Assembly: GCA_004563595.2 (NCBI GenBank)
Contig: CP042461.1
Span: forward strand, 270,001-302,000
Source of the DNA: Candidatus Saccharimonadota bacterium
GTDB lineage: Bacteria; Patescibacteriota; Gracilibacteria; BD1-5; UBA6164
Direction: 5' to 3'
Length of the DNA stretch: 32,000 nucleotides
The translations under genes were made by a program, and so were the position numbers. The notes beneath the pieces are model-generated. The model searched no databases, was not told the origin of the DNA, and saw only the letters and a list, made by a program, of their open reading frames with translations. Numbering within the stretch: the stretch's first letter is position 1; every line of letters begins with the position of its first letter. Shown piece after piece: positions 984 through 28,035 of this stretch.

Positions 984-1009
984 AAAAGATTCCTAATGGA
1001 ATCTTTTTT
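984..1009. terminator. Bidirectional intrinsic terminator shared by two convergent genes
   Basis: Stem aaaagattcc / ggaatctttt with loop taat, flanked by an A-run and a T-run. It overlaps the 3' end of the minus-strand CDS. Confidence 0.7.
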
Positions 1010-1721
1010 ATTTTCTAAAACTTTCTAATATTTCATGAGCAATTTGTTTTCAACCGAGTCAAAATGCAAGTCCTCAAGCGATAGTCAGCATTGATATGAA
1101 TCATACAAGAATAGTATTTATGATAAATGTATCAACTATTTTTGTATAGTTTAACACAAGCATAAGCGTAAAAAATAGGATTATTATTTTTGCACCACTG
1201 GCAATGATTCTACTTGTTTTTTGTTTGGTTAGGCTGAGAGTGTGATAGACAACATCATACACAAAGTTTGCAAATCTAATACCAAAGAATCAGATGATAA
1301 CTCAGATGAAAAGGCTCGGGAGGTATGCGAGTAAGTCTCATAGAAATACTTCTACTTCTTTGATTCAGATTACAATGATGGCAAACCTGAAGAATGCTAG
1401 GAATATATAGTATGAAATAGATCTTGCCGCGATTTCGTCTATTTTTACCTTTTGGCTGAGTTTTTTAGGAGCTGTTTTTTCTGACTCTTTTTTATCTTTA
1501 TCATGCTCTTCATCAAACTTGAGGGTGATTCTATCAATAATATCTAGTATATTAAATTTTTTGAAGAGATATTTTACAAATTTATGGATCGCAATTGATA
1601 TAAGGACTCAAAAGGCAAGTATGATCAGGGCTCATATAAATTTTGGGAGATAGAGCTCTATATTTCAGAGTATTACGGTGTAGAGGTTGTTTATTATTTT
1701 GTCTATATCAAAGTTAAACAT
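1008..1721 (-). CDS. Membrane protein with conserved TM-helix repeats (MscS-N-terminal-like). Function unknown.
   Basis: ATG at 1721-1719, TAA at 1010-1008, 237 aa in table 25 with several TGA=Gly. Hydrophobic segments present. C-terminal ...LAFGLGGKQIAHEILESF resembles the 'conserved TM helix' family. Confidence 0.7.
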
Positions 1722-1790: not shown

Positions 1791-1818
1791 TTGACTAAAA
1801 ATCAATATTTCATATACT
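1791..1818 (+). promoter_or_regulatory. Sigma70-type promoter for the tRNA(UCA) gene
   Basis: TTGACT (1791-1796), 16-nt spacer, TATACT (1813-1818), about 55 nt upstream of the tRNA 5' end. Confidence 0.5.
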
Positions 1819-1874
1819 CACATCTGCAAATATTTGAGTGATTGCGTGTCGTTTTTACCAAAATATCTGTCTGA

Positions 1875-1953
1875 GCGAGGGTAACATAAAAGAGTGAGTG
1901 TACTAAGGCTTCAACCCTTGGGTGTGCGAGTTCAAACCTCGTCCCTCGCTCCA
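1875..1953 (+). tRNA. tRNA-Gly with anticodon UCA, the decoder of the reassigned UGA codon. CCA is encoded.
   Basis: Acceptor stem GCGAGGG/CCCTCGC. T arm GCGAG-TTCAAAC-CTCGT. Anticodon stem TAAGG/CCTTG with loop CTTCAAC (anticodon TCA at 1911-1913). Discriminator T at 1950, then CCA. G1:C72, C2:G71, G3:C70 and U73 match bacterial GlyRS identity elements. Short 5-nt variable loop. The D arm is atypical (no GG). Confidence 0.85.
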
Positions 1954-2034
1954 ATAAAAAATTTAAATCAAAAAAGCCTCTATTTAATTAAAAATAGAGG
2001 CTTTTTTGATTGTCAAAATTGAGTTCGATAATTC
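1950..2034 (+). repeat. Copy A of a repeated intergenic module (A-rich leader, terminator hairpin, GAT(T/G)GTTCA... tail). It starts at the tRNA 3' end (TCCA).
   Basis: TCCAATAAAA...AAAAAAGCCTCTATTT..AAATAGAGGCTTTTTTGATTG... aligns with copy B (3121-3222) from the first base. The hairpin and tail are also shared with 5878-5943 and partly with 2591-2645. Confidence 0.6.
1975..2007 (+). terminator. Intrinsic terminator after tRNA(UCA)
   Basis: agcctctattt / aaatagaggct hairpin followed by a T-run. Confidence 0.8.
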
Positions 2035-2127
2035 TGTTGAAATCTGAAATTATGAACTCATGCAATACACATGACTAAAAGATAAAAATGGGAAAGAAAT
2101 ATATGAAGGGATGATTAATTTTAGACA

Positions 2128-2155
2128 TAAAAAAATCTCCGTAAGTTATACGGAG
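2128..2155 (-). terminator. Intrinsic terminator (minus strand) overlapping the stop codon of the small membrane protein gene
   Basis: ctccgta / tacggag stem. The A-run at 2128-2135 is a T-run on the minus strand. Confidence 0.7.
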
Positions 2156-2367
2156 AGTACTCTTATTAATATGAGCATTAATGCTGATAGACACATCGTA
2201 ATGAGTGAATATTTAGCATATTTAAGGGCACTTTGATTATCAGAGTATTGGTATACTCCTCCAATAAAAGTTACATGCATCCAGCTACAGCCATAGAAAA
2301 ATATCGCAGACAGAGCAGGTATTATAATACATAATAGAAATAGCGTAAGCCATACAAAATCAGGCAT
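2146..2367 (-). CDS. Small hydrophobic membrane protein (73 aa). TGA-free with a strong SD.
   Basis: ATG at 2367-2365 preceded by AAGGAG 8 nt upstream. The longer track ORF starts at a TTG. TAA at 2148-2146. Two predicted TM stretches (MPDFVWLTLFLLCIIIPALSAIFFYG...). Confidence 0.6.
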   Translation of the reverse strand: MPDFVWLTLFLLCIIIPALSAIFFYGCSWMHVTFIGGVYQYSDNQSALKYAKYSLITMCLSALMLILIRVLSV

Positions 2368-2590
2368 TTTTTTCTCCTTTTTAAAAGTAGATTGCAGACA
2401 GAAAATACTCAAAATTAATAATTAGTCAAATATAAAATATGTTTTATGAGCTTTACAAGAAAACTTTTGGTAAAGACTTTGTAGGATTTATAGAAGTATT
2501 TACTTAAAAAAAGAACTGATGAAATGTAAAAAATGTAATTTCCAATTTAAATAAGAATGAAATAATTAAAACAGCTTATGAATTTACATG

Positions 2591-2645
2591 AATAGTTTTT
2601 GATGGTTCAGTAGAGCCTTGAAATAAGTGGGAAAATGTATATACC
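2591..2645 (+). repeat. Copy D (partial) of the repeated module. Tail only, no complete hairpin.
   Basis: AATAGTTTTTGATGGTTCAGTAGAGCCTTGAAATAAGTGGGAAAATGTATATACC compared with copy B AATAGAGGCTTTTTTGGTGGTTCAATAGAGTACTAAAATTAGTTAAAAATTGGTATATGC. Confidence 0.5.
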
Positions 2646-2765
2646 CCATTTGCAATCTTGAACTCACTTTAATCATTACTTTTCCTATTAGTATGATTTT
2701 TTTGATTTTCTCATAATTGTTTATATATTACACTAATAAAGTTATATTAATTTAAAATGTAGTAG

Positions 2766-3104
2766 ATGAATAAAATATCTTGGGATGAATTTCAGAATGT
2801 TGAATTAAGAGTATGAACCATTATTGAAGTAAATGATTTTCCAGAAGCAAGAAAGGCTGCTTATAAATTAAAAATAGATTTTTGAGTAGATATTTGAATT
2901 AAAAAATCTAGTGCTCAAATTACTGATTTATACACAAAAGAAAACTTATTAAATAAACAGATAATTGGGGTAATAAATTTCCCTATAAAACAAATTGGTA
3001 CATTTATGTCTGAGTGCTTAGTAACATGATTTGTTAAAGGCGATTGAAATGTAGTATTAGCCGTACCTGATAGTGAAGTTATTAATTGAAGTAAATTAGC
3101 TTAA
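2766..3104 (+). CDS. tRNA-binding domain protein (CsaA/YgjH-like)
   Basis: 112 aa in table 25: [53 protein letters not shown]... This is the typical CsaA/YgjH N-terminal pattern. Seven in-frame TGA are read as Gly. Ends in TAA. Confidence 0.85.
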
Positions 3105-3120
3105 TTTAAATAAGATCTTT

Positions 3121-3222
3121 TCCAATAAAACAATTAAATAAAAAAGTCTCTATTTTTAATTAAATAGAGGCTTTTTTGGTGGTTCAATAGAGTACTAAAA
3201 TTAGTTAAAAATTGGTATATGC
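3121..3222 (+). repeat. Copy B of the repeated module. Includes the csaA-like gene terminator (hairpin 3145-3172, T-run to 3177).
   Basis: TCCAATAAAACAATTAAATAAAAAAGTCTCTATTTTTAATTAAATAGAGGCTTTTTTGGTGGTTCAATAGAG... The first ~65 nt are about 85% identical by eye to the tRNA 3' flank (copy A). Confidence 0.6.
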
Positions 3223-3340
3223 TATTACTTATTTTGAACTTTTATTAATTAGGGATCTCACTTACCTTAAGGGAATAAGGGGGTAATAGAGTATTATATA
3301 TATGTTCCCAGATAAACTAGAAATAGATAAAAATTATATA

Positions 3341-3373
3341 AAAAAAAGAGGAGAATACATATTGTATTCTCCT
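3341..3373 (-). terminator. Intrinsic terminator (minus strand) after the NhaA-like gene
   Basis: aggagaataca / tgtattctcct hairpin. The A-run at 3341-3347 is a T-run on the minus strand. Confidence 0.75.
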
Positions 3374-3382
3374 TGTTTATAG

Positions 3383-4636
3383 TTATGTTCATGAATATTT
3401 TCTTTCTTCAGGAACAAAGTTTTCAACTGTATCAATTGTCTTATTTAAGAGATATGACAATGGTACAGTCAGTAAAAAACCAATCTTCATTTGAGCCGCT
3501 ATTTCTAATGGGATTAACTCATTTGTTTGTGCTACTGAGACAAAAATTATTGCTACAGTACCGTTGCAGGCCCCGGCAATAGCCATGCTTAAAAGAGACA
3601 TTTTATTAAGTTTATTTTTACCGTAATCAGAGTTAGGATCTACATATCTTTGACAAATCAGGCCTCCAAAGTAAATACCAATTAGTTTTCCTCCAAAACC
3701 ACCAACAAGAGCTATGGTTGTAAATACTCCCCATGATAGAGGATCGAGTACATTAATACTCCCTGCTACAAGAGCAAATGGGAGTAATAGCCATAATGCA
3801 AGTGATTCTGTTTTTTCAATTACTAGCTGTTTAACATTATCAGGTGCAAAGATCATCGGAAGACACCCACCTAGAATTGGCTCAATACCATTAAAGCCTA
3901 GAAGGGATGTATTAAAGATGCAAAGAGTGACCCAGAAAGTCGGTGATTGAATAGTAACATCATATGTTTTTCGACCTATTATTTTATATGTTTTTTGATC
4001 TTTCTCTTCCTCTTCCTTGAGTTCTGTTACAATGACAGGACTAAATTTACCAAAAAAATAGGCAACCATCAGGACAAGCAAACCAGGAATAGAGAGGGTT
4101 TGTATCTGTTCTACTCCTTGAGAAAATAATCCAATCATGGAAATAATCCCTAGAAGATCATCACCAACAGCTAACATCGTTAGTGCACTTATCATTACAG
4201 TAGTTGATATATTTTTTGCCATTTTTGCTGAGCCTATTGCCATTGGTACATCAGTTGCCATACTTCCAGCAGATGCATATAATGCTACAGCTAATCCTAT
4301 ACCTCCTATAAAGTAAGCAAGAGAAGTTGTTAATATGAGAGGAACAATTACACCTCCTAATATAGTACCAATAATCAGAGGTCCAGCTTTTAAAATATCA
4401 TTAACTTCAATTTCAGCACCTAGTCGTAAGAAAAATACCCATAAGCCAGTAAGCATCATCCAAAAATGCACAGTTGGATGATGTATTACATGAGTGTATG
4501 TTTCTCCATACTCTCCAAAGAAACCATTTTCACTCAAGCCGTAAACGATGAGTGAAAAGATCAAAAAATAGATAATAACGGGTATCTTAGAGTCCAATAA
4601 TACAATCCCTTTTTTTTTGTCATTTGTATGTAACAT
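3383..4636 (-). CDS. Na+/H+ antiporter, NhaA-like (divergent). TGA-free, probably acquired.
   Basis: 415-aa standard-code ORF ending in TGA (3391-3389). In table 25 it gains two residues (G,T) and stops at TAA 3385-3383. NhaA-like motifs: FFLRLGAEIEVNDIL, SMATDVPMAIGS, VGDDLLGIISMIGLF. About 40 Gly codons, none of them TGA. SD GAGGGA upstream. Hand-counted stretches are G+C-richer than neighbouring genes. Confidence 0.75.
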
Positions 4637-4931
4637 AATTTTCCCTCATGTTTTTGTTTGTGTTTTGATTTTTAGCGAGTGCATTTATATATTAATAATG
4701 ATTAAAGTCAATTTTTTTCCTTACATTCTAGTTCAAAGCGAATAATTAATTGAAAAACCAATAAGGATATTCATAATGGGAGTTGCTTAAATCTTAAATC
4801 ATTACAAATGTCTCATAAACAGTTTACAGAAGAAAATATATATGTATATAATCGAAAAAAATGATCTTTTTTGACTGTTACCCTATTATATGATAAACTA
4901 AATATGAATTATATATATAACAGTTGCTATT

Positions 4932-5801
4932 ATGTGAAAGAATATTCCTGAAACAAAAGACTACTCATCCGATGAAATAAAAGAACAATCAAACTTTGGG
5001 GAGTCAATAAAAAAAGCACTAGAAAATAGTGTATTAACACAAGTAGAAGCAAAATGACTATTAGATTCATATGAAGAGCAAAAATACGGAATAATACATT
5101 ATAACAAGGAACAGTTATCTTCACTTCAAAGAGCATTATGAGTAAGTTGAAATAATGAATTATTTAAAAATGAAGAATTAAAAGCTTTGAAATTAAAGGC
5201 AGAAGAACCTTTAATAATAGAACCCATAAAAACAGAGACAACTATGAGGCTATCTTCAACAGATGAGCTTATTGCTCAGGCAGAATCTATGAATATTTTC
5301 CAAGAGATAGATCTTGATTGGACTCAAATGGACAATCCAGAGTATAAAAATGAACGTTCTGAGGAAGTAATAAAATTATTCAGTAGCAAAATGAAAGAAC
5401 TTGAATCAGAATTTATGCCACATGTAATGGAAATATTTTCATCTTACTTTTGACCTGAAAAAGATCATAAATGAATGAACGATGCAGTAAATACATTTCT
5501 CAATACGTTTAAACAATATGATATTAATGGTGATAATGAAACATCTACAGGAGAACTTTTACATGGAATTTGATTGATTGATGAAGACGATATTACCACA
5601 TATCAAAAACTAGAAAAATCATTAATTGAGAATTTTAAAAGTACTGATATTCAGAATAAACTTATGGCAATCTTAGGTGGTTCGAAAAAAAGTATTAATA
5701 TATTCAAATCATTTGAGAAAGAACTACCTGATACAGCTGTTCAATTTAAAAAAATAGTAAAATTTCTTATTAATGCTGTTGCAAAATATAATAATATATA
5801 A
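4932..5801 (+). CDS. Hypothetical acidic protein (289 aa) with an EF-hand-like loop
   Basis: ATG 4932, TAA 5799-5801. It joins track ORFs 5187-5453 and 5574-5801 (same frame) through TGA=Gly. DINGDNETSTGE fits a 12-residue EF-hand loop pattern. No family recognised. Confidence 0.65.
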
Positions 5802-5877
5802 ATATCATTTGAATATATAGAAGTAAATTAGAGTTCGATGAAAGAAGTCTTGAAAAAAATGATATGAGAACTCAAAG

Positions 5878-5943
5878 CAAAAGAGCCTCTATTTTTAGTT
5901 AAATAGAGGCTCTTTTGATGATTCGATAAAATTCGAAAAATAG
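5878..5943 (+). repeat. Copy C of the repeated module. Includes the terminator of the preceding gene (hairpin 5882-5913).
   Basis: AAAAGAGCCTCTATTTTTAGTTAAATAGAGGCTCTTTTGATGATTCGATAAAATTCGAAAAATAG shares the hairpin and the GATG.TTC..TA tail with copies A, B and D. Confidence 0.6.
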
Positions 5944-5960
5944 AAAATAATATAAAAAAC

Positions 5961-5991
5961 TTGACCATAGACCATGGTCCATAGTTACAAT
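5961..5991 (+). promoter_or_regulatory. MerR-type promoter: TTGACC, 19-nt spacer containing a palindromic operator, TACAAT
   Basis: TTGACC (5961-5966), spacer ATAGACCATGGTCCATAGT (19 nt), TACAAT (5986-5991). GACCATGGTC is a perfect palindrome. The extended imperfect dyad is ACCATAGACCATGGTCCATAGT. A MerR-family gene lies downstream in the same orientation. Confidence 0.6.
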
Positions 5992-6026
5992 TGCATTGTT
6001 ACTTTATATTATTAATATATACTTAT

Positions 6027-6557
6027 ATGAAAATCGCATTACAAAGAATAACAATAAATTCACCAGTAGATAAAGTTTGGAAAGTACTCAGTGATGATTT
6101 TGTTGCCGTTAGTATATGGATGGCTGCTATTAAAATATCCGAAGAAATTACAAAAGGTACAAAAGTATCAGGCGCTCCAGTAATAGGGAGAAAATCCATT
6201 ATTTGAGCGGTAGAGGAGGGGAGATCTTTTCTAGAAGAGACTATTACGGCATATGATGAAAAAAATAAATCTCTTACCGTGAAATCTGTACTGAAAAATA
6301 ACTCAAATTTTTCACCTATGATATCATATACCAGTATAATTACGGTAAAGAAAATAGATGAAAATACTTCAGAAGTTATATGGGATGGATCAGCTGAATT
6401 ACAACTATTAGGTTATCCTATGTATTTTCTTGTGAAAAAATGATTAGCTGCGTGATTTTATAGAGGGATAGAAGAGCTACAACATTTTATGGATACTGGA
6501 AAGCCTCATCCACGTAAAATAGCATTTTTAAAAAAATGGGGAATGTCAGTAAAATAA
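6027..6557 (+). CDS. SRPBCC/START-like (polyketide cyclase-dehydrase fold) protein
   Basis: 176 aa in table 25: MKIALQRITINSPVDKVWKVLSDDF...VIWDGSAEL... This is the typical SRPBCC N-terminal pattern. Three TGA=Gly. TAA at 6555-6557. Confidence 0.7.
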
Positions 6558-6657
6558 AAGTAAAATATTATAGGCCTAAAGTTCTCTTTTTGATAATAAG
6601 GATAAAATAGTATAATATTTGAATAAGAATTTATTGATATAAAACTTTAATAAAAAT

Positions 6658-7041
6658 ATGAAAATAGGTGAAATATCAAATATAACAGGAGTGACACGTG
6701 ATGCTATTCGACTGTATGAAAAGATGTGACTTATAAAAAGTCAAAAAAGTAATCAGTTTAGCAATAATTATAGAGAATACGATGAAAGATGTTTAGAACG
6801 AGTGAAGGCTATAGTAAATATGAAAGATATAGGAATTAAGCTTAAAGAGGCAAAAATTATATTTGATGCTATGTCAGGAGGAACTTTTGATGCTAAATTC
6901 AGGGCAAATTTTGTAGAGAGTAAGCTTGAAGAAATTGAGGAAAAAATAGAAAATCTTCAGAAGTTTAAAACCACTATTTTAGACATGTGAAAAATAGACT
7001 GTGCCGGTGAAAACGCAGAAATAATAGAAAAAATGAAATAA
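6658..7041 (+). CDS. MerR-family transcriptional regulator
   Basis: MKIGEISNITGVTRDAIRLYEKMGLI... (MerR HTH) followed by a coiled-coil dimerisation helix. 127 aa. TGA=Gly at the conserved 'E..GL' position. TAA at 7039-7041. Confidence 0.85.
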
Positions 7042-7116
7042 TAGAATTAATTTTAGAAGAAAATATTGATAATCTTCAGAGAGATAGATAGAAAATTATT
7101 TTTTTCATGAGGGCTG

Positions 7117-7452
7117 CTATTTGTTTGCATTAATTTGAATCGCTTGTTTGATATAATACTCAAGAGCTTGAGTATTCATTTGCTTTAGAGCTAATACCCT
7201 CATGGCTTTTCCTCATCATGTAAGGAGGCCAAGCTCATCACTCATTTTTGCTCCTTTTAAAAAACCAAAATCAATTCCATATGGCATTGTTCTCATATGA
7301 CAGATACCACCATTATTATTTGAGTAGGTGGTAATTCTGTCTTTTTTTGTTTCTGTTATGTTTTCAAAGGAAAGAAGAAAATCCCTTGCCTCTAGGAATA
7401 GGTTTTTATGTTCTGATAGTAGATCTGTATCAAATTGCATAGTTATTTTCAT
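7117..7452 (-). CDS. DUF1801 (YdhG-like) family protein
   Basis: Track ORF 7216-7452 extends through TGA-TGA-GGA (GGG) to TAG at 7119-7117, giving 111 aa. The pattern ...ICHMRTMPYGIDFGFLKGAKM...GGGKAMRVLALK... resembles DUF1801. Confidence 0.6.
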
Positions 7453-7617
7453 AAACTAAATAAAATATATGCTCATTATAGTAATATATAAGACTTAGAA
7501 AATCAATTATAAAATAACTTTAATATATTTGATATATTCATTATTAGTATTAGTATGGAAAAAGATATAGAAGTTAAAAAACATAGATCATTTTTGAAAA
7601 ATTAAACAAAAAGTATT

Positions 7618-7923
7618 ATGATTATATATAAATTTAATACGGAGCGAGAGTATGCTATGTATTATGTAAATAAACTGAATGATAGCAGAGTATTGAAGAT
7701 TTTAAAATCAGGAGAGGTACATAGTAAAGAGGATGCACTTTGTTTAAGTGAGTTTTTTTGGAACATGGTGGGTGCTTCAATTCAGGATAAAAAAGCTGGG
7801 CTTCAGTTTCCTTGGGAAGGAAGTGCAGAATTTTGGGAAGAAAAATTGATGAATTCATTTTCGTTTTACTTGGAGAGGGAAGGTTATGAGAAGGAGTGGG
7901 ATGAAGTGGTTAATAGAGTGTAG
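7618..7923 (+). CDS. Hypothetical protein (101 aa), Trp/Glu-rich, TGA-free
   Basis: Intact standard-code ORF ending in TAG and followed by a hairpin terminator. All 5 Gly codons are GGN. No family recognised. Confidence 0.6.
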   Translation: MIIYKFNTEREYAMYYVNKLNDSRVLKILKSGEVHSKEDALCLSEFFWNMVGASIQDKKAGLQFPWEGSAEFWEEKLMNSFSFYLEREGYEKEWDEVVNRV

Positions 7924-7931
7924 ATGATTAA

Positions 7932-7962
7932 AAAATAAAAAAACCGAGTTTAGCTCGGCTTT
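7932..7962. terminator. Bidirectional terminator between convergent genes
   Basis: ccgag / ctcgg stem (7944-7958) flanked by an A-run on the left and ctttt on the right. Confidence 0.55.
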
Positions 7963-7990
7963 TAATAAATATTCTTTGTTTTATAACCAT

Positions 7991-8203
7991 TTAAATGAGT
8001 TTTCGCATTAAAGTTATATTTGTTTTTGTATCTTCAATACGGGCTTCAATTTCTTTTATTTGTTCTTCTGCTTTATCTCGCTTATCTGGAGTTAAATTCG
8101 TTACTCCTTTTTTGCTTTTAGAAAGTAATTTTTCATAGAAACAGAGTTCGGTTTCTATTTCTTTTATATTAGCTTCTATAGGTGTTAATACCTGATTTTC
8201 CAT
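7991..8203 (-). CDS. Hypothetical small coiled-coil protein (70 aa), TGA-free
   Basis: Track ORF 7991-8266 begins at a TTG that overlaps the upstream gene. The first ATG (MENQVLTPIE...) is at 8203. Charged heptad-like sequence. Ends in TAA. Confidence 0.5.
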   Translation of the reverse strand: MENQVLTPIEANIKEIETELCFYEKLLSKSKKGVTNLTPDKRDKAEEQIKEIEARIEDTKTNITLMRKLI

Positions 8204-8237
8204 TATTTTTCCATTGTTTAGCTTAGAATAAGAAGGA

Positions 8238-8531
8238 CTATAATACAGTACTAATTTTTCTTTCAAGTATTATCTGAGTACTTTTAGGAAAAAGAGGGTC
8301 TTTTCTTAATTTTTTAGCAAAAGCTTTTGCTTGTTTTAATGCCTCTTCTTCTATATCTTTTAAGATAGCATTTTTTTCAGGGACCCTAACACTCTTTGAT
8401 GTTAGTTTGTTAGTATATTTTGAATCAAAGGAAAGCACTTTTTCTCTATTTTTGAGTGCACCTAGTTCAAAATCTTCTTGTTTTTCTGGATAGGAAAAGA
8501 CTATTATATATTCTGGTATTTGATATTTCAT
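8238..8531 (-). CDS. Hypothetical protein (97 aa), TGA-free
   Basis: Intact ORF with the SD-like AAGGAAAG 7 nt upstream of the ATG, and a strong promoter further upstream. No family recognised. Confidence 0.6.
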   Translation of the reverse strand: MKYQIPEYIIVFSYPEKQEDFELGALKNREKVLSFDSKYTNKLTSKSVRVPEKNAILKDIEEEALKQAKAFAKKLRKDPLFPKSTQIILERKISTVL

Positions 8532-8581
8532 TATCAGCTTTCCTTTTTTGTTTTATAAGTATATTTGTTACCTATGACTTG

Positions 8582-8609
8582 ATTATAAAATTATTTTTAT
8601 ATAAGTCAA
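8582..8609 (-). promoter_or_regulatory. Sigma70-type promoter for the 8531->7991 minus-strand operon
   Basis: On the minus strand: TTGACT (8609-8604), 16-nt spacer, TATAAT (8587-8582). Confidence 0.6.
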
Positions 8610-8673
8610 TCAATTATATGTTAGCTCTGATTTTATTATCATAATTCAATATTGCACCCGATAAATCTTGAGC

Positions 8674-8706
8674 AAAAAAAGCCCCTCACGTGATAACGTG
8701 AGGGGT
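8674..8706 (-). terminator. Strong intrinsic terminator (minus strand) with no protein gene upstream of it
   Basis: GC-rich hairpin cccctcacg / cgtgagggg. The A7 run at 8674-8680 is a U-run on the minus strand. Confidence 0.75.
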
Positions 8707-8795
8707 GAGATAAAGACTTTCTATATACCATGGAATCTTATCTAGGGGGAACTAGGTTTGTCCCACTTGTATATTACCATAGAAAGTCAGCAGTA
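8674..8795 (-). ncRNA. Candidate structured small RNA ending at the 8674-8706 terminator
   Basis: 10-bp closing stem GACTTTCTAT (8715-8724) / ATAGAAAGTC (8779-8788). Internal hairpin GGGAC/GTTCC on the minus strand. No ORF. The 5' end and promoter were not identified. Confidence 0.3.
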
Positions 8796-8846
8796 TTATT
8801 CTTTTGTACTAAACTTTATTGCGATCAACTCATTCATACTCCATAC

Positions 8847-8868
8847 CTAAATATATTAATAGGAGATG
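8847..8868 (+). repeat. 22-nt direct repeat, copy 1
   Basis: CTAAATATATTAATAGGAGATG matches 8973-8994 at 20 of 22 positions, 126 nt apart. Confidence 0.5.
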
Positions 8869-8972
8869 ATTCATATTTCTTTTAGCGATAGAGTTTCAAT
8901 CTTGATTTTATTTTTGTATCGGGAAAGCTTTATACTTATTTTTATGTAAAAGTAAAATTTTTTGTAGACTAG

Positions 8973-8994
8973 CTAAATATATTGATAGTAGATG
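8973..8994 (+). repeat. 22-nt direct repeat, copy 2
   Basis: CTAAATATATTGATAGTAGATG. It contains TTGATA, which is followed 17-18 nt later by TAAAAT (promoter-like). Confidence 0.5.
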
Positions 8995-9066
8995 CAGGAG
9001 AGTCTTAAAATAATATATGGAAACTGATTATAATTTAGAAGTAAGGACATCAGTCATTAAACTTAA

Positions 9067-9099
9067 AAGGCTAACCGATACGGTTAGCCTTTTTGTTTT
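9067..9099 (+). terminator. Intrinsic terminator (plus strand) in a non-coding region
   Basis: aaggctaaccg / cggttagcctt hairpin followed by TTTTGTTTT. The only upstream ORF is a 27-codon ATG ORF that runs into the hairpin. Confidence 0.7.
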
Positions 9100-9374
9100 G
9101 TAATTTTCAGATAGAGATAAGTCCATAAATGTTATACTAATGGAATGCTATCGGTTATTGTAACGTTATAAGAGTCTAGATTATTTAATGTTTCACCTAT
9201 TCTTTTGAATTCATTACTAGATGAAAACATATTTTTTGTTAAATAACAGAACACATTTTGAGAATCTGTATCCTAACAAACTTGGGAAAACCCAACAATA
9301 GTATTTAATATTATTGTTACTATAAGGTTAGAATTCTAAATTTTATAGGAAAAATTCTTCACTACCAAACCAAA

Positions 9375-9402
9375 ATATCCGGCAATAGCCGGGTATTTTT
9401 TT
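9375..9402 (+). terminator. Intrinsic terminator (plus strand) in a non-coding region
   Basis: atatccggc / gccgggtat hairpin followed by T7. No upstream ORF longer than ~26 codons. Confidence 0.7.
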
Positions 9403-9514
9403 GTCATTTAAAATCATAGACCTATAATAATAAGCCATAAAATAAAATGAATTGACAAAACTTGAAATTCCTTATTATTATATAATAAATACATTTTTTA
9501 TTAACCAAATAGCT

Positions 9515-9973
9515 ATGAATATTTGAACAACAGGGAGTAATGAAATGGAGGTAGCTCATATCTGTCTTTTTGAAGAAAAAACAGGAAAAACCTTACTTCA
9601 ATTTAATGAAAAATTTCAGATGCACTCTTTTGTTTGATGAAAATGTGATTGAAAAAATTGCATTGATACAATTCTACATGAAATGTGAGATGAAATTTGA
9701 TATTCATTTTTACCCCAAAGCTTTGTTAAAGTAATACAAAATACAAAAATAGTTTGATGAAAAATATGTAACGGTACTATTTATACAGGATATCTACCAG
9801 AAGGATTTGAACCGTTAGATATTAAATGAGAAGGAAAGAGTGAATTCTATGATTTAGCTGATGCTCCACTAGATAATTTTATAACTTGAGATGGAAGAGC
9901 AGAAACAGAGAAAAATATCCTTTTTTGTCACTGGGTGTTAAGACTTCAACATTTATTGAAATATAGATTATAA
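9515..9973 (+). CDS. Nudix-like hydrolase with a degenerate Nudix box
   Basis: 152 aa in table 25 with 9 TGA=Gly. GGKCDGKNCIDTILHEMGDEIG aligns with GX5EX7REUXEEXGU, but the first E is N and RE is HE. Confidence 0.6.
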
Positions 9974-10004
9974 AAAGCTGTTCACATAAGTGAACAGCTT
10001 TTTT
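9972..10004. terminator. Bidirectional terminator
   Basis: gctgttcac / gtgaacagc hairpin with an A-run on the left and a T-run on the right. Confidence 0.75.
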
Positions 10005-10025
10005 ATACACAAATAGTGCCAGCTG

Positions 10026-10307
10026 TTAAGTTGATACCTCTGTTAAGGAATTATCTATTTTTTTTCTGCTTGAAATGAACATTTCCATAGCACAGCCTAA
10101 TACTGTCGAAGCACTAACGATTAGAATGCACATATTAAAAGCTTGTTCTGAGTATTCATTGTGTGATACTAATAGTGTAACTAGCAGAGCTGTAATAGCT
10201 ATGAAAGTAAAAAGGTTTCGAGCATATTTTAATAAGCGTATTGCCATGTCAATCTCCATTTGAGAAAAAAAAGTATTATCCTTACTAATCAATAATTCGT
10301 TTACCAT
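10026..10307 (-). CDS. Small membrane protein (93 aa), TGA-free
   Basis: Intact ORF ending in TAA. Two hydrophobic helices (FTFIAITALLVTLLV, NMCILIVSASTVLGCAMEMFI). Confidence 0.55.
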   Translation of the reverse strand: MVNELLISKDNTFFSQMEIDMAIRLLKYARNLFTFIAITALLVTLLVSHNEYSEQAFNMCILIVSASTVLGCAMEMFISSRKKIDNSLTEVST

Positions 10308-10364
10308 TTCTTTTGAAAAATAAACTTACTATTGTTAGTGACGTAATTATATCGTTTCTTTAAT

Positions 10365-10410
10365 TAAATGTCAAGGGAGAGGATTTGAAAAAAATAACCA
10401 TTGACATTTA
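10365..10410 (+). promoter_or_regulatory. Perfect 10-bp inverted repeat bracketing the -35 of the promoter of the 10466 gene pair
   Basis: TAAATGTCAA (10365-10374) and TTGACATTTA (10401-10410), 26 nt apart. TTGACA at 10401-10406 is followed about 17-19 nt later by an ATTATA/TATATA -10 region. Confidence 0.45.
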
Positions 10411-10465
10411 ATTTATATTTAATATTATATAGTTACATAACAAAAGTAGAAAGGAGTTCTACATT

Positions 10466-10747
10466 ATGGCAGTATTGGATGCGGAAAAAAAATTAGAAAT
10501 AAACCAGGCTCTTATAAAAGTATTTGAAGAGACCGGGTACTTGCAAAAATGCTTATCGTCAGATGGCTTTTGCTGGAAGAATTCTAAATTAAATATTCAT
10601 GAACCTGTTATGCAACAAAAACTTGTAGTTGTATTAAATAAGACTTGTTTTGATGGGCACCATGAATTGTGTTCATATATCGTACATGAGTTTATTAGTA
10701 CTATCGAAGAATGTTGTAAATTAAAAAAAGGAGAGAAAAATGATTGA
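10466..10747 (+). CDS. Hypothetical Cys/His-rich protein (93 aa), TGA-free. Its stop is a TGA inside an ATGA overlap.
   Basis: SD AAAGGAG sits 8 nt upstream. The ORF ends at TGA 10745-10747, overlapping the next gene's ATG (10740). In table 25 it would read through to TAA 10763-10765, adding 6 aa. Confidence 0.6.
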   Translation: MAVLDAEKKLEINQALIKVFEETGYLQKCLSSDGFCWKNSKLNIHEPVMQQKLVVVLNKTCFDGHHELCSYIVHEFISTIEECCKLKKGEKND

Positions 10748-11102
10748 AAGTTTATCTGAAAATAACCCTAAATTGTTTGCTAGAGAAGGTGTTGACTCTA
10801 ATCATTCTATGTGTGGAGAAGCTATCGTAGAATCATTAATGTCTGAGATCGATACTAAAGGCCTTAAAGTTATGAAGCTGTTGGATATGGACAAGCTTCT
10901 TAATACAGAACTTCATCAATTAAGAGCTTTAATAGACTCACCTTTTAAATATTGTATTATAGAGGGGAAACAAAGCACACAATTTGATAAAAAGTATTCT
11001 GTATATAACTTATCTTCTATGGAAATAGTTGAGGGTCCTGAATATCAAGGCTATATAGGCGACTATATTATTGCTTTTGACATACTTGCATGGAACAACT
11101 AA
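10740..11102 (+). CDS. Hypothetical protein (120 aa), TGA-free, translationally coupled to the upstream gene
   Basis: SD AAGGAGAG upstream. All 7 Gly codons are GGN. Ends in TAA and is followed by a terminator. Confidence 0.65.
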   Translation: MIESLSENNPKLFAREGVDSNHSMCGEAIVESLMSEIDTKGLKVMKLLDMDKLLNTELHQLRALIDSPFKYCIIEGKQSTQFDKKYSVYNLSSMEIVEGPEYQGYIGDYIIAFDILAWNN

Positions 11103-11125
11103 GCTATTTCAAGTAAAATTTACAT

Positions 11126-11152
11126 GCCCCGTCTTTACGAGGGGCTTTTTTT
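11126..11152 (+). terminator. Intrinsic terminator
   Basis: gcccc...ggggc stem followed by T7. Confidence 0.7.
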
Positions 11153-11164
11153 ATGCCCTTTTTC

Positions 11165-11192
11165 TTGATTTTTTATCACAATTTTATATAAT
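11165..11192 (+). promoter_or_regulatory. Sigma70-type promoter
   Basis: TTGATT (11165-11170), 16-nt spacer, TATAAT (11187-11192). About 100-nt leader before ATG 11297. Confidence 0.55.
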
Positions 11193-11296
11193 TTCGCGAG
11201 AAAAGTGGAATCAGTATGAGATAGGGAGCTTTTTGCTTTCAATTTCTGCAATTTTTCATATAATGCAGTTGAATATATCTTTAAATATGAGTAATT

Positions 11297-11632
11297 ATGG
11301 CAAATAGTCACGGACTAAAATCAAACATTGTGAAGAAACAAGCGAAGGCGAGAAAATTAGCAAAGTGAAAAGTAAGAAAAGATCACGCTGCTTATATAGG
11401 AAATGAGAATCCACAAGTAAGGAAGAATCAATCTTATAAAGATAGAAATCATTACCTGGAAAATAAACAAAAATTCCCAAAGAAAAAACTGAAAACAAAG
11501 AATGTTGAGAGTTTGAAAGAACAAGGAATTTTAGATGAAAGAGGATTTTTTACAAAAGGGAAAAAGAAAAATTTTGAAACAAAGACAATGGTAGATTCAA
11601 AAGGCCTTGATTTTTATGGAATGCCAAGATAA
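11297..11632 (+). CDS. Highly basic Lys-rich small protein (111 aa), function unknown
   Basis: ATG 11297, TAA 11630-11632, one TGA=Gly. The track shows only an antisense artefact here. Confidence 0.55.
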
Positions 11633-11697: not shown

Positions 11698-11716
11698 ATA
11701 ATAAAACCAATATTTT

Positions 11717-12430
11717 ATGCAAAGATTTTATTTTCCTGATCTAGAAAAAGAAACTGATAGTGTTACTATAAAAAATAAAGATTTCATAAATCAACTTACA
11801 AAAGTACTCAGAGTAAGTGAATGATTTGAAATTATTTTTTTTAATGGAGAAGATCCGGTTGATAATATTTTTGAAGTTGCAAGTATTGATAAAAGAGAAA
11901 TATATTTAGAAAAAAAATCCGAAATAGAAAATGATTCAGAAATAGAGTTTGATCTTAATATTTTTGGGGCACTGCCAAATAAGATAGAAAAAATAGAGCA
12001 AATAGTTGCCAAATGAACTGAGGTATGAATTACTGGATTTTATTTTTTTAGAAGTGAAAGAAGTCAAAAATTGAATCTTTCAGAAAATAAAATAGCAAGA
12101 ATACAAAAAATTATCACTGAAGCAGCAGAGCAGTCGTGAAGATCAAGAATCCCCGAACTTATTATAGAAGATAATATCTCTTTGAGTGATTTCGCTGAAA
12201 ACGAAAATATATTTTTTCATACTGAAGCAAATGATTCACAGTCATTAAAAGAAATAAAACTTGATTATACAAAGTGATTAAATCTCTTTGTATGACCAGA
12301 ATGAGGTTGGTCAGATGATGAGATCTCACATTTTAAAAATATAGGTTTCAAGAAAGTTCACCTTTGAAATAGAATACTCAGAACAGAAACAACATGAGTA
12401 GTTGCATGATTCTATTTTATACAAAAATAA
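11717..12430 (+). CDS. rsmE: 16S rRNA (uracil1498-N3)-methyltransferase RsmE
   Basis: 237 aa in table 25. MQRFYF...HLTKVLRV-like N-terminus. C-terminal ...LFVGPEGGWSDDEI...LGNRILRTETTGVVA is the RsmE SPOUT signature. Several conserved Gly residues are encoded by TGA. Confidence 0.9.
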
Positions 12431-26222: not shown

Positions 26223-26303
26223 TAGAGTGGATATTATAAGAAGTGCACAAACGAAAGCACAAAAGTACGTATAATAAAATAAGACAAGACAAGGGGCAGG
26301 AAA

Positions 26304-27191
26304 ATGAATGCAGTACTAGAACGTCCACAACAAATAGCTGAGATAAAAATAAAAACAAATGAAATCATAGATTTAGCACCACAAATCTTGAGACAAAGAC
26401 TACGAATGGAAGGAAATTATTCTATTCAAGTTGATGGAGATACTGTTTCTAGGTATTTAAACAAATTATCAGAACTTTTAGGTATGGAGATTACTCATGG
26501 ACCTGAAATACAAAATGATGCGGAGATAATAAACCCTATTCATAAAGGTTTTGAAGGAATAATGATGATGTCTGGTGCAAGTACACATGCATATACTTGG
26601 GAATTAGGGAATTTCTTTTCCATTGATGTATATTCATGTAAATCATATGACATGTCGGCTATACTTGAATTCACAAAAATGTTTTTCGAAGTGACTCGGC
26701 TTCGATATCAACCAACGAATTCTCGTGATGGTACCAACAACTTGACTTTTGATAATAATCATGTAGAAAAAATGGCTAAATCAAATATATTTGATTTAGC
26801 CCCAAAAATATTGCGGCAACGGACACGAATAGAGGGAACATATGTAATTGATATTAGAAAAGATACTCTGAAAAAATATATGGTTGAATTATCTGAATTT
26901 TTAGGCATGCACATTACACATGGACCTGTTATTCAAAATGATGCAGAAATAGTCAGTAATCCAATACATGTAGGGTTTAAGGGTGTTATGATGTGGGCTG
27001 AGTCTGGTACACATGCATATACATGGGAGAAAGAAAAGTTTTTTTTAATTGATGTATATTCATGCAGCTTATATAATACTAAAATGGTGCTTGAATTTAC
27101 TAGAAACTTTTTTCAGGCTACCACAATTGGATATGAAGCAACGCATTCTCGTAATGGTCCAAATAATTTAACTATTATGCCTATTTCTTGA
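26304..27191 (+). CDS. Tandem-duplicated S-adenosylmethionine-decarboxylase-like (pyruvoyl-enzyme fold) protein. TGA-free, with a fossil TGA stop.
   Basis: 295-aa standard-code ORF. Two repeats (nt 26367-26747 and 26790-27173) share about 76 of 128 residues by hand alignment. Each carries THAYTWE....IDVYSC, which resembles ESH.(S/T)IHTWPE....(D)V(F/Y)TC of prokaryotic AdoMetDC. Glu-Ser is present only in repeat 2 (27000-27005). All 17 Gly codons are GGN. The TGA at 27189-27191 sits just before a terminator. Table 25 would extend the ORF to TAA 27261-27263. Confidence 0.6.
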   Translation: MNAVLERPQQIAEIKIKTNEIIDLAPQILRQRLRMEGNYSIQVDGDTVSRYLNKLSELLGMEITHGPEIQNDAEIINPIHKGFEGIMMMSGASTHAYTWELGNFFSIDVYSCKSYDMSAILEFTKMFFEVTRLRYQPTNSRDGTNNLTFDNNHVEKMAKSNIFDLAPKILRQRTRIEGTYVIDIRKDTLKKYMVELSEFLGMHITHGPVIQNDAEIVSNPIHVGFKGVMMWAESGTHAYTWEKEKFFLIDVYSCSLYNTKMVLEFTRNFFQATTIGYEATHSRNGPNNLTIMPIS

Positions 27192-27209
27192 ATTGCATAC
27201 ATGGAAAAC

Positions 27210-27246
27210 AAAAAAATACCTTACGTTTTAGTAAGGTATTTTTTTA
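27210..27246. terminator. Bidirectional terminator between the AdoMetDC-like and VTC genes
   Basis: ataccttac / gtaaggtat hairpin flanked by an A-run and a T-run. Confidence 0.75.
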
Positions 27247-28035
27247 TTTCATTTCATTTTTAATATTTTCAATTTCTTTCATTGTATCTTTAAATGTATT
27301 GTATTTTTTTGCAAGTCATGAATAGACGACTCAAAGCGAATACTTACTACAAGATTTTGCTTGTTTAAAACCATGTTTTTCCATTATCTCTAGACTTTTA
27401 CAGTTTGTTTCAAGAGATTTACTTTCGATAATTACAAGGTTTTTTAAATTTGTTTCTGATGCATCTTCATCTCTGAGATCAAGAGTCCTAATATCAAAAT
27501 CAATAGTAAGTCTTTCTCCTCATAATCTATCAACGAGGGTAATTCTTTTATATCTTGTTTTAATAGCAGGGAAGATCTTTGGAACCTTTACAGTACTATC
27601 ATACATACTTTGCCATACTCATTCGAAAAATCTTTTTTTTCATTTTGTCATTTTCCCGTGTTCATCACTTGGAAATTCATACCTATATTTACTTGTGATA
27701 CCATTTTCTTTTTGTTTATATTCAAAGAATGCAAGATCAGAATCTTTATAGAGTCTTGTTCTGACTTTTGTTCTTGCTTTTTGCTTATTTTCATGTTGAT
27801 TATAGAAAAAATAATCATCTGTATCCATATAAACATTATCGTATGAAAATACTTTTTTATCTACGATTTGCAAAACTTGAAAATTTTCTTTGAGTTCTTC
27901 TAACACTTCTGAAAATTGTTTTCAAGTGAGTAGAAATTTTCTATCAATTCTTTTTAAAAAGCTTGCTGACGCGTTTAATTCAGTCAGAGTGATAGATGAG
28001 AAATTATTTAATTTAGAGTCAAACGTTGTTGCCAT
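27244..28035 (-). CDS. VTC-domain (polyphosphate-polymerase-like, CYTH-superfamily) protein
   Basis: 263 aa in table 25. RIDRKFL, Y.N.YMDT, R.K.R.R.Y, EYK.K, RITL....ER.T.D, IIESK and SKYS follow the VTC/TTM strand pattern. It contains track ORF 27640-27906. Confidence 0.65.

Follow-up and report, generated by a model that had tools for sequence, protein, structure and literature searches.

A conserved tRNA-Gly(UCA) gene that very probably decodes UGA as glycine in a Gracilibacteria bacterium with genetic code 25

Glycine tRNAs with the anticodon UCA have been known since 2013 from bacteria that use genetic code 25, and such a gene is an ordinary feature of Gracilibacteria, expected in the DNA examined here. 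Campbell et al. (2013) and Rinke et al. (2013) are reportedly among the reports of this tRNA, and the former are said to have reported in vitro glycylation of the SR1 tRNA. The glycine identity rule used by Shulgina & Eddy is said to originate from Giege (1998). Shulgina & Eddy (2021) call tRNA-Gly(UCA) by the same acceptor-end rule that is applied below, that is, G1:C72, C2:G71, G3:C70 and U73 (PMC8629427). For a BD1-5 bacterium, Hanke et al. (2014) verified by proteomics that UGA is read as glycine (PMC4032931). No BD1-5 genome contains prfB (PMC6851277), and the tRNA-UCA genes of different SR1 genomes are almost the same (PMC3812714).

The gene described here has the same anticodon, the same identity set and a TGA-rich host as the code-25 tRNA-Gly(UCA) of Gracilibacteria (BD1-5/GN02) and Absconditabacteria (SR1). 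It also lies in the same gene neighbourhood as the known Gracilibacteria tRNA(UCA), with no difference in kind. The copy in the window (the whole 32-kb stretch of DNA analysed) differs from the known Gracilibacteria copies in an A4:U69 pair, a longer leader and a 9.3-kb island before the downstream gene. Mildly new, at most, are the covariation of a sixth anticodon-stem pair, which may already stand in the 2013 paper, and the clade-wide conservation of the promoter.

A dedicated UCA tRNA is likewise found under code 4 (Mycoplasmatales, Entomoplasmatales and several insect endosymbionts), also in small, low-GC genomes without RF2, but that tRNA-Trp(UCA) carries the tryptophan set with G73, whereas the tRNA in the window has the glycine set with U73. 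Under code 4, no harm is done if wobble extends the reading to UGG, since both codons mean tryptophan, while here UGA and UGG differ in amino acid. Both tRNA-Sec and tRNA-Pyl have a 6-bp anticodon stem, and in tRNA-Pyl the variable loop is also short and the D loop lacks G18G19. Like the window tRNA, they are stop-codon readers with non-canonical bodies. Unlike them, the window tRNA shows neither an 8/5 nor a 9/4 arrangement, has no long variable arm and keeps a normal T loop (UUCAAAC); its decoding is genome-wide, not context-dependent, and it would be charged directly with a standard amino acid. Finally, a tRNA-Trp(CCA) with a 4-bp anticodon stem reportedly gains UGA reading (Kachale et al. 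2023; bacterial survey in PMC13092985). The same codon pair, UGA/UGG, is involved in both cases, but that stem is a pair shorter than usual and the present one a pair longer, and the anticodon and the amino acid differ.

Detection, cloverleaf and covariation of the tRNA

A sequence-only reading of this DNA had placed a cloverleaf with the loop CTTCAAC and the anticodon UCA at 1875–1953 and had named ARAGORN as a check. Run on the 32 kb, ARAGORN found a single tRNA, at 1875–1953 on the forward strand, with the anticodon tca at position 37. In a local scan over 1875–1950, the Rfam tRNA model RF00005 scored 45.4 bits (E=1.2e-8) against a gathering score of 29, and the cloverleaf is borne out by both programs and by the sequence itself. 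Since tRNA and tRNA-Sec belong to the same Rfam clan, in which the best match alone survives, the two models were set in competition, and the generic tRNA model was the match retained. Rfam at the gathering threshold over the entire window gave no match, the tRNA gene included; this miss is due to the speed filters, under which the unusual D arm evidently slips.

The gene (forward strand throughout) is 79 nt long, made up of 76 nt plus an encoded CCA. Direct reading of the sequence gives the acceptor stem GCGAGGG/CCCTCGC at 1875–1881/1943–1949, the discriminator U73 (T) at 1950 and the CCA at 1951–1953. It also confirms the claimed glycine identity set, G1:C72, C2:G71, G3:C70 and U73, which is invariant in all 16 sequence variants of the family described below. 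The D arm (1884–1901) has the stem ACAT/GTGT and a 10-nt loop without GG, AAAAGAGTGA in DNA letters; this unusual arm, already pointed out in the sequence-only reading, is seen in the sequence and is the same in every variant. The anticodon arm (1903–1921), supported by sequence, covariation and energy, has a 6-bp stem CUAAGG/CCUUGG and the loop CUUCAAC, in which the anticodon UCA (1911–1913) follows U33 within seven nucleotides. The T arm (1926–1942) reads GCGAG-TTCAAAC-CTCGT. Written as RNA, the cloverleaf runs acceptor GCGAGGG, UA, D stem ACAU, D loop AAAAGAGUGA, D stem GUGU, A, anticodon arm, variable loop GUGU, T stem GCGAG, T loop UUCAAAC, T stem CUCGU, acceptor CCCUCGC, U and CCA.

The alignment of 46 copies of the tRNA, which reduce to 16 distinct sequences, contained no indels. 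All 22 stem pairs were kept in the 16 variants, with 352 of 352 pair cells standard. Changes on both sides were found in five pairs, namely pair 4:69 of the acceptor stem, two T-stem pairs and two anticodon-stem pairs. The third anticodon-stem pair changes from A:U to G:C in loci L275, L287 and L290, and the outermost one, C1903:G1921, a C:G pair in the majority of copies, is replaced by U:A in L252 and L292. In slid controls, one pair with changes on both sides was obtained at +1 and none at the other five slides. Folding energies were −23.4 kcal/mol for the cloverleaf with a 6-bp anticodon stem, −20.2 kcal/mol for the 5-bp version and −23.5 kcal/mol for the minimum free energy structure. The latter, computed from the single sequence, is not a cloverleaf and has z = −1.48, with the cloverleaf lying within 0.1 kcal/mol of it.

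Since C1903 pairs with G1921, the anticodon stem comprises six pairs and the variable loop four nucleotides; for this assignment, the covariation is supportive rather than conclusive, as it possibly goes back to one evolutionary event. The sequence-only reading had described one extra nucleotide before the anticodon stem, which does not hold, since this nucleotide is C1903 and forms the sixth pair of the stem.

The D stem was the same in all 16 variants, and so was most of the D loop, including GAGU in place of G18G19. This indicates strong constraint on the D arm, while invariance is silent on its pairing. By contrast, the T stem of the family takes several forms (GCGAG, GCCAG, GCCGG, ACGAG and ACCGG) and differs from those of the tRNA-Gly(UCC) (L100) and tRNA-Gly(GCC) (L291) of relatives. 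The sequence GCGAG/CTCGT noted earlier for the T arm is correct, but the statement that it equals that of canonical tRNA-Gly is not, since it matches neither glycine tRNA of the relatives; the argument from T-arm identity is therefore weak. An origin as a recent duplicate of a canonical glycine tRNA was also considered and rejected, since the resemblance to the Gly(UCC) tRNA of L100 and the Gly(GCC) tRNA of L291 is confined to the acceptor ends. A comparison with E. coli selC showed no relationship. Judged from the aligned copies, the tRNA body is almost frozen across the clade and is therefore under strong selection.

UGA as a glycine codon in the host

Stop-to-stop open reading frames of at least 100 aa amounted to 8.7 kb with table 11 and to 43 kb with TGA taken as coding, the latter being the sum over all six frames. 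Reading through TAG brought no gain in coverage, and the figure for TAA is inflated by the GC content of 28%.

The amino acid assigned to UGA was determined by masking TGA as X in four proteins, which were then aligned with solved homologues. In PNPase, glycine stood opposite TGA at 13 of 19 sites, including those in the GxxG, GRREIGHG and LGDMDFKV motifs. The same was found at 4 of 6 sites in TrpRS, 8 of 17 in MurG and 18 of 31 in the phosphate transporter PiT. Pooled over the four proteins, 43 of the 73 TGA sites faced glycine and none faced tryptophan, the remainder being mostly alanine or serine.

Codon usage was calculated in 21 core genes. TGA made up 273 of the 462 glycine-box codons (59%), which corresponds to 41.7 per 1000 codons, and TGG was used 37 times. 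The 20 complete core genes ended in TAA (18) or TAG (2). The host translates UGA as glycine and uses code 25. UGA is its most used glycine codon, and with this 59% share the UCA tRNA serves more glycine codons than any other decoder here.

Transcription signals, gene neighbourhood and the adjacent island

The sigma-70-type promoter TTGACT-16-TATACT, described in the sequence-only reading, is present at 1791–1818 (forward strand) with 10 of 12 consensus matches and an A-rich tract before it. Promoter sites occur at chance level within the window (5 sites found, 4.8 expected), but this one is conserved in the family: with a criterion of at least 9/12 within 130 nt upstream, TTGAC[T/A]-16-TAnnnT precedes the orthologous tRNA in 41 of 46 loci, with a spacer of almost always 16 nt, and the A-rich tract also recurs upstream of the promoter in related loci. 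The promoter sits in a divergent intergenic region of 153 nt between the start of an MscS-like gene (1721, reverse strand) and the tRNA. The 5′ leader of the tRNA precursor (1819–1874, forward strand) measures 56 nt from the −10 hexamer to G1, compared with 12–52 nt in most relatives.

The strong terminator proposed for the gene was found as an intrinsic-terminator hairpin, GCCTCTATTT..AAATAGAGGC, at 1966–2011, with 20 pairs (5 of them G-C) and with terminator-like partial matches in Rfam. It is preceded by an A run and followed by a T run, so that it could terminate transcription from either side. Of the 46 related loci, 33 have a terminator-like hairpin after the tRNA. The description as a stand-alone transcription unit stands for the window, where the single tRNA has its own promoter and terminator, but not as a rule of the family. 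L282 and L284 have a tRNA-Lys 20 nt before the tRNA(UCA), and no promoter was found there; in L291, 42 nt separate the tRNA(UCA) from a downstream tRNA-Gly(GCC), with a basic-protein gene 14 nt past the latter. The basic-protein gene begins 17–34 nt after the tRNA in L274, L277, L286, L287, L288 and L290, and gaps of 17–34 nt or 14 nt leave no room for a terminator. In this window, both the own promoter and the own terminator are well supported.

A pattern scan over one genome per GTDB species gave 18 loci of the wanted family among the 120 matches listed, which is a lower bound. The same 79-nt tRNA, with 1–3 differences (97–99% identity), is thus present in at least 18 species genomes, labelled Candidatus Gracilibacteria, Peribacteria or unclassified Patescibacteria and with a GC content of 19–39%. 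They include the complete genomes CP017714.1 (HOT-871) and CP060226.1, as well as MOLU01000002.1 (GN02-872), and none of the matches listed came from a genome labelled SR1 or Absconditabacteria. The other matches were mostly tRNA-Glu(UUC), tRNA-Leu(CAA) and a tRNA-like gene of Solirubrobacterales, since TTCAA and the GCGAG T arm are common to them. The scan also returned unrelated oddities in other phyla. In addition, metagenomes were scanned with the protein of the conserved downstream neighbour, which yielded 52 loci. Of these, 27 extend as far as the tRNA; in one of them, L277, the tRNA is identical to the window copy. The A4:U69 pair of the window is G4:C69 in its commoner state among relatives.

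Upstream and divergent lies the gene of the MscS-like membrane protein (1008–1721, reverse strand; Pfam MS_channel_1st_1, E=2.8e-11), a homologue of which adjoins the tRNA in 15 of the 18 genome loci among the matches listed. The usual immediate downstream neighbour in relatives is the gene of a 111-aa basic protein (11297–11632, forward strand), after which comes rsmE (11705–12430), and this order adjoins the tRNA in 10 of the same 18 loci. Two scans of IMG/VR viral contigs gave no exact match to the D/anticodon arm of the tRNA. By its distribution and context, the gene is best described as a conserved, syntenic chromosomal gene of Gracilibacteria, neither a pseudogene nor mobile cargo.

The basic protein belongs to a large family confined to Gracilibacteria. 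Searches in Pfam, NCBIfam and Foldseek returned nothing for it, with no detectable relatives. Its identification as ribosomal protein bL28 was tried and is unsupported (PDB profile E=0.18, hhalign probability 1%).

In the window, this neighbour is separated from the tRNA terminator by a lineage-specific insertion of 9.3 kb (2012–11284). By blastn against 70 related loci, the island had no match, while both flanks matched. TGA accounts for 26% of the glycine-box codons in the island, against 59% in the core genes. Several of its genes have no in-frame TGA, and an NhaA-like gene with 35% GC ends in TGA, with TAA two codons later. The scarcity of TGA and the TGA end of the NhaA-like gene hint at standard-code donors, from which the island was perhaps acquired. 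A repeat of about 60 bp, consisting of TCCA (the last four tRNA bases) and the terminator, occurs again at 3119–3182, and near-copies of the terminator hairpin are found at 3146–3171 and 5885–5910. An interpretation of the island as a tRNA-targeting integrative element was rejected, since there was no integrase in Pfam scans, no PHROG match and no copy of the tRNA 3′ half at the far end.

Competing readings and the proposed decoding of UGA

A UCA tRNA could in principle be a selenocysteine tRNA (selC), with UGA read at SECIS-marked sites only, and ARAGORN labels the gene tRNA-SeC; this label comes from the anticodon alone, as the program names every tca anticodon in this way. The anticodon, the 6-bp anticodon stem and the D loop lacking G18G19 do recall tRNA-Sec, but the acceptor/T arrangement is 7/5 and not 8/5, the variable loop has 4 nt with no long arm, the discriminator is U and not G, and clan competition in Rfam keeps the generic tRNA. 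The first two of these features had already been held against tRNA-Sec in the sequence-only reading, rightly so. Moreover, 41.7 TGA per 1000 codons, placed on conserved glycine positions, is impossible for selenocysteine, and a SECIS-dependent system is left with practically no probability as the explanation of this tRNA. Equally negligible is a tRNA-Trp(UCA) under code 4, by which mycoplasmas and certain endosymbionts read UGA as tryptophan, although the low GC content (28%), the in-frame TGA and the UCA anticodon would fit it, and gene callers often choose code 4 for such contigs (PMC3812714). Against it, TGA aligned with tryptophan at 0 of 73 sites and with glycine at 43, so that the tRNA is no Trp suppressor either; TGA represents 4.2% of codons, far above any tryptophan content, and TGG is still used (37 codons). 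In addition, the acceptor end with G1:C72 and U73 departs from the tryptophan set with G73 (rule in PMC8629427).

The aberrant D arm without G18G19 raises the question of whether the gene is a decayed, non-functional tRNA-like remnant, for which the nucleotide in excess of a standard cloverleaf, the miss by the fast filters of Rfam in the whole window and the unremarkable folding z-score may also be adduced. This is extremely improbable, since the odd D arm is invariant in 16 of 16 variants from 46 loci in genomes of 19–39% GC, stem pairing is 100% with five double changes, the promoter is conserved and a UGA decoder is needed for 273 codons in 21 core genes. The gene was therefore not found to be a pseudogene, the other outcome that the sequence-only reading had set against its proposal. 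That the gene is a suppressor tRNA brought in by a phage or mobile element, with the adjacent 9.3-kb island being that element, is very improbable as well. In its favour, the lineage-specific, TGA-poor insertion starts right past the tRNA terminator, and the repeat at 3119–3182 contains the last four tRNA bases. Nevertheless, the same flanking genes are found in most of the 46 loci, all of them without the island, the D/anticodon arm had no exact match in IMG/VR, and the island proteins gave neither a PHROG match nor an integrase in Pfam scans. The tRNA is likely the target or hot spot of the insertion and not its cargo.

We consider it very probable that the gene encodes the glycine tRNA for UGA in a bacterium of the class Gracilibacteria (Patescibacteria/CPR) with genetic code 25, its expression and charging being predicted as follows. 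The tRNA would be transcribed from its own strong sigma-70-type promoter, with transcription ending at the hairpin terminator about 15 nt past the encoded CCA. RNase P would remove the 56-nt leader, and the short trailer would be trimmed back to CCA. GlyRS would recognise G1:C72, C2:G71, G3:C70 and U73 together with C35 and would charge the tRNA with glycine despite A36; in model bacteria, the GlyRS identity element at this position is C36. In the ribosomal A site, the anticodon UCA would then pair with UGA and presumably meet no competition from RF2, as UGA is read as sense because release factor 2 is lacking according to the literature. A dedicated, strong and conserved promoter fits with UGA being the most used glycine codon.

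The gene marks the contig as Gracilibacteria, and the window must be translated with table 25, since table 11 fragments its genes and table 4 turns UGA into tryptophan. U34 could in principle also read UGG (Trp), an ambiguity that has been flagged before (PMC8629427), and tRNAs with 4-bp anticodon stems indicate that stem length can shift UGA/UGG reading (PMC13092985; PMC13462651). By analogy, the frozen body, with its 6-bp stem, 4-nt variable loop and D loop lacking G18G19, might act as a decoding-fidelity device by which U34 reads UGA and avoids UGG, which we regard as an unlikely, speculative proposal. As a weaker companion idea, the 111-aa basic protein may be a clade-specific translation component tied to UGA decoding. 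The finding raises the question of how U34 separates UGA (Gly) from UGG (Trp) in these bacteria, in which the 6-bp stem and the odd D loop possibly take part. If the fidelity proposal were true, the tRNA would be the reverse case of the tRNA-Trp(CCA) with a 4-bp stem, and its own stem would parallel those of tRNA-Sec and tRNA-Pyl, which also have 6 bp.

Insertion between tRNA-Gly(UCA) and its conserved neighbor

The 9.3 kb between the terminator of tRNA-Gly(UCA) (1875-1953, + strand) and the gene for a 111-aa basic protein is a lineage-specific insertion (2012-11284), which starts directly 3' of the tRNA terminator. Its flanks adjoin each other in relatives, and no segment of it found a match in 70 related loci. 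An insertion of about 4 kb is present at the same site in locus L255, so the position 3' of the tRNA may be a hot spot. Neither an integrase nor a PHROG match was found in the island.

A direct repeat of about 60 bp was detected at 1949-2012 and 3119-3182. It is made up of the final four tRNA bases (TCCA), a spacer rich in A, and the hairpin of the terminator, GCCTCTATTT..AAATAGAGGC; a third copy at 5885-5910 consists of the hairpin alone. These three hairpin matches compare with 0.02 expected, and the rest of the 32 kb has none. Stepwise insertions beside the tRNA could have left the repeats as scars, or the repeats could reflect a locally duplicated terminator.

The segment flanked by the two longer repeats contains, 0.8 kb downstream of the tRNA, a gene (2766-3104, + strand) with six TGA codons. 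Its product is small and CsaA/Trbp111-like, and its tRNA-binding domain matches Pfam tRNA_bind at E = 1.9e-13. The linkage of this gene to the tRNA is not conserved in relatives.

Codon usage and origin of the inserted genes

TGA accounts for 26% of the glycine codons in the island, compared with 59% in the 21 core genes of the window. Several island ORFs have no in-frame TGA (7606-7923 and 10725-11102 on the + strand; 7991-8269, 8238-8552 and 10026-10325 on the − strand). The low TGA share, together with these TGA-free ORFs, suggests that island genes were acquired from standard-code donors.

An NhaA-like antiporter gene (3389-4636, − strand), with a weak match to Pfam Na_H_antiport_1 under the curated cut-off, is likewise an ORF in the standard bacterial code (table 11) without in-frame TGA. 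It contains 41 GGN codons, and its GC content is about 35%, compared with 28% for the whole window. In table 11 the gene stops at a TGA, with TAA two codons on, so the product would be two residues longer in this host. The gene appears to have been acquired recently from an organism that uses the standard code. A similar gene, with one TGA and 17 GGN codons, lies at 26283-27263 (+ strand).

Among the 6544 codons of the core genes, CGG (1) and CGA (5) are nearly absent, and arginine is mostly encoded by AGA (145). Reading of CGG as Trp has been reported for some Gracilibacteria (PMC8629427).

The 111-aa basic protein

The very basic 111-aa protein (MANSHGL...DFYGMPR) is encoded at 11297-11632 (+ strand). 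In relatives, its gene directly follows tRNA-Gly(UCA), with a gap of only 17-34 nt in some (family members include L010 1578-1907 and L056 7063-6731, among others). The family comprises 524 protein clusters, with lengths of about 110-113 aa throughout. Those that carry a name are annotated as Gracilibacteria hypothetical proteins, except for two JGI entries named pilin PilA. Identity is 75-89%, above that of the neighboring RsmE. Nothing matched in searches of Pfam, NCBIfam, PDB and Foldseek. AlphaFold gave a model of moderate quality, with pLDDT 69 overall and 85-89 in the C-terminal part.

Unusual tRNA genes in other phyla and detection by Rfam

The pattern scan of genome contigs also returned unusual tRNA genes. 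A conserved 96-nt tRNA-like gene occurs in Solirubrobacterales MAGs, among the matches listed in L005, L009, L012, L017, L018, L021, L023, L025, L029 and about 20 more. It has the anticodon loop CTTTCAA (UUC) and a hairpin of about 20 nt inserted in the D loop. The label that ARAGORN assigns, Pro(ggg) or Thr with an intron, is wrong.

A tRNA with anticodon UCA lies at 16-90 (− strand) of L003, an Anaerolineaceae MAG contig (CAZCDK010000023.1) with 65% GC and long table-11 ORFs. Its body resembles canonical tRNA-Gly, with a normal GG-containing D arm, acceptor GCGGGAG and U73. This tRNA could be a naturally occurring opal suppressor that inserts glycine in a lineage outside the code-25 clade. 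A different tRNA(UCA), adjoining tRNA-Ile(UAU), was found in a Clostridia MAG (L073).

With fast filters, the Rfam scan of the window (1-32000) missed tRNA-Gly(UCA), which was found only by a 400-nt local scan, scoring 45.4 bits against a gathering score of 29. Annotation pipelines that depend on such filters may overlook tRNA-Gly(UCA).
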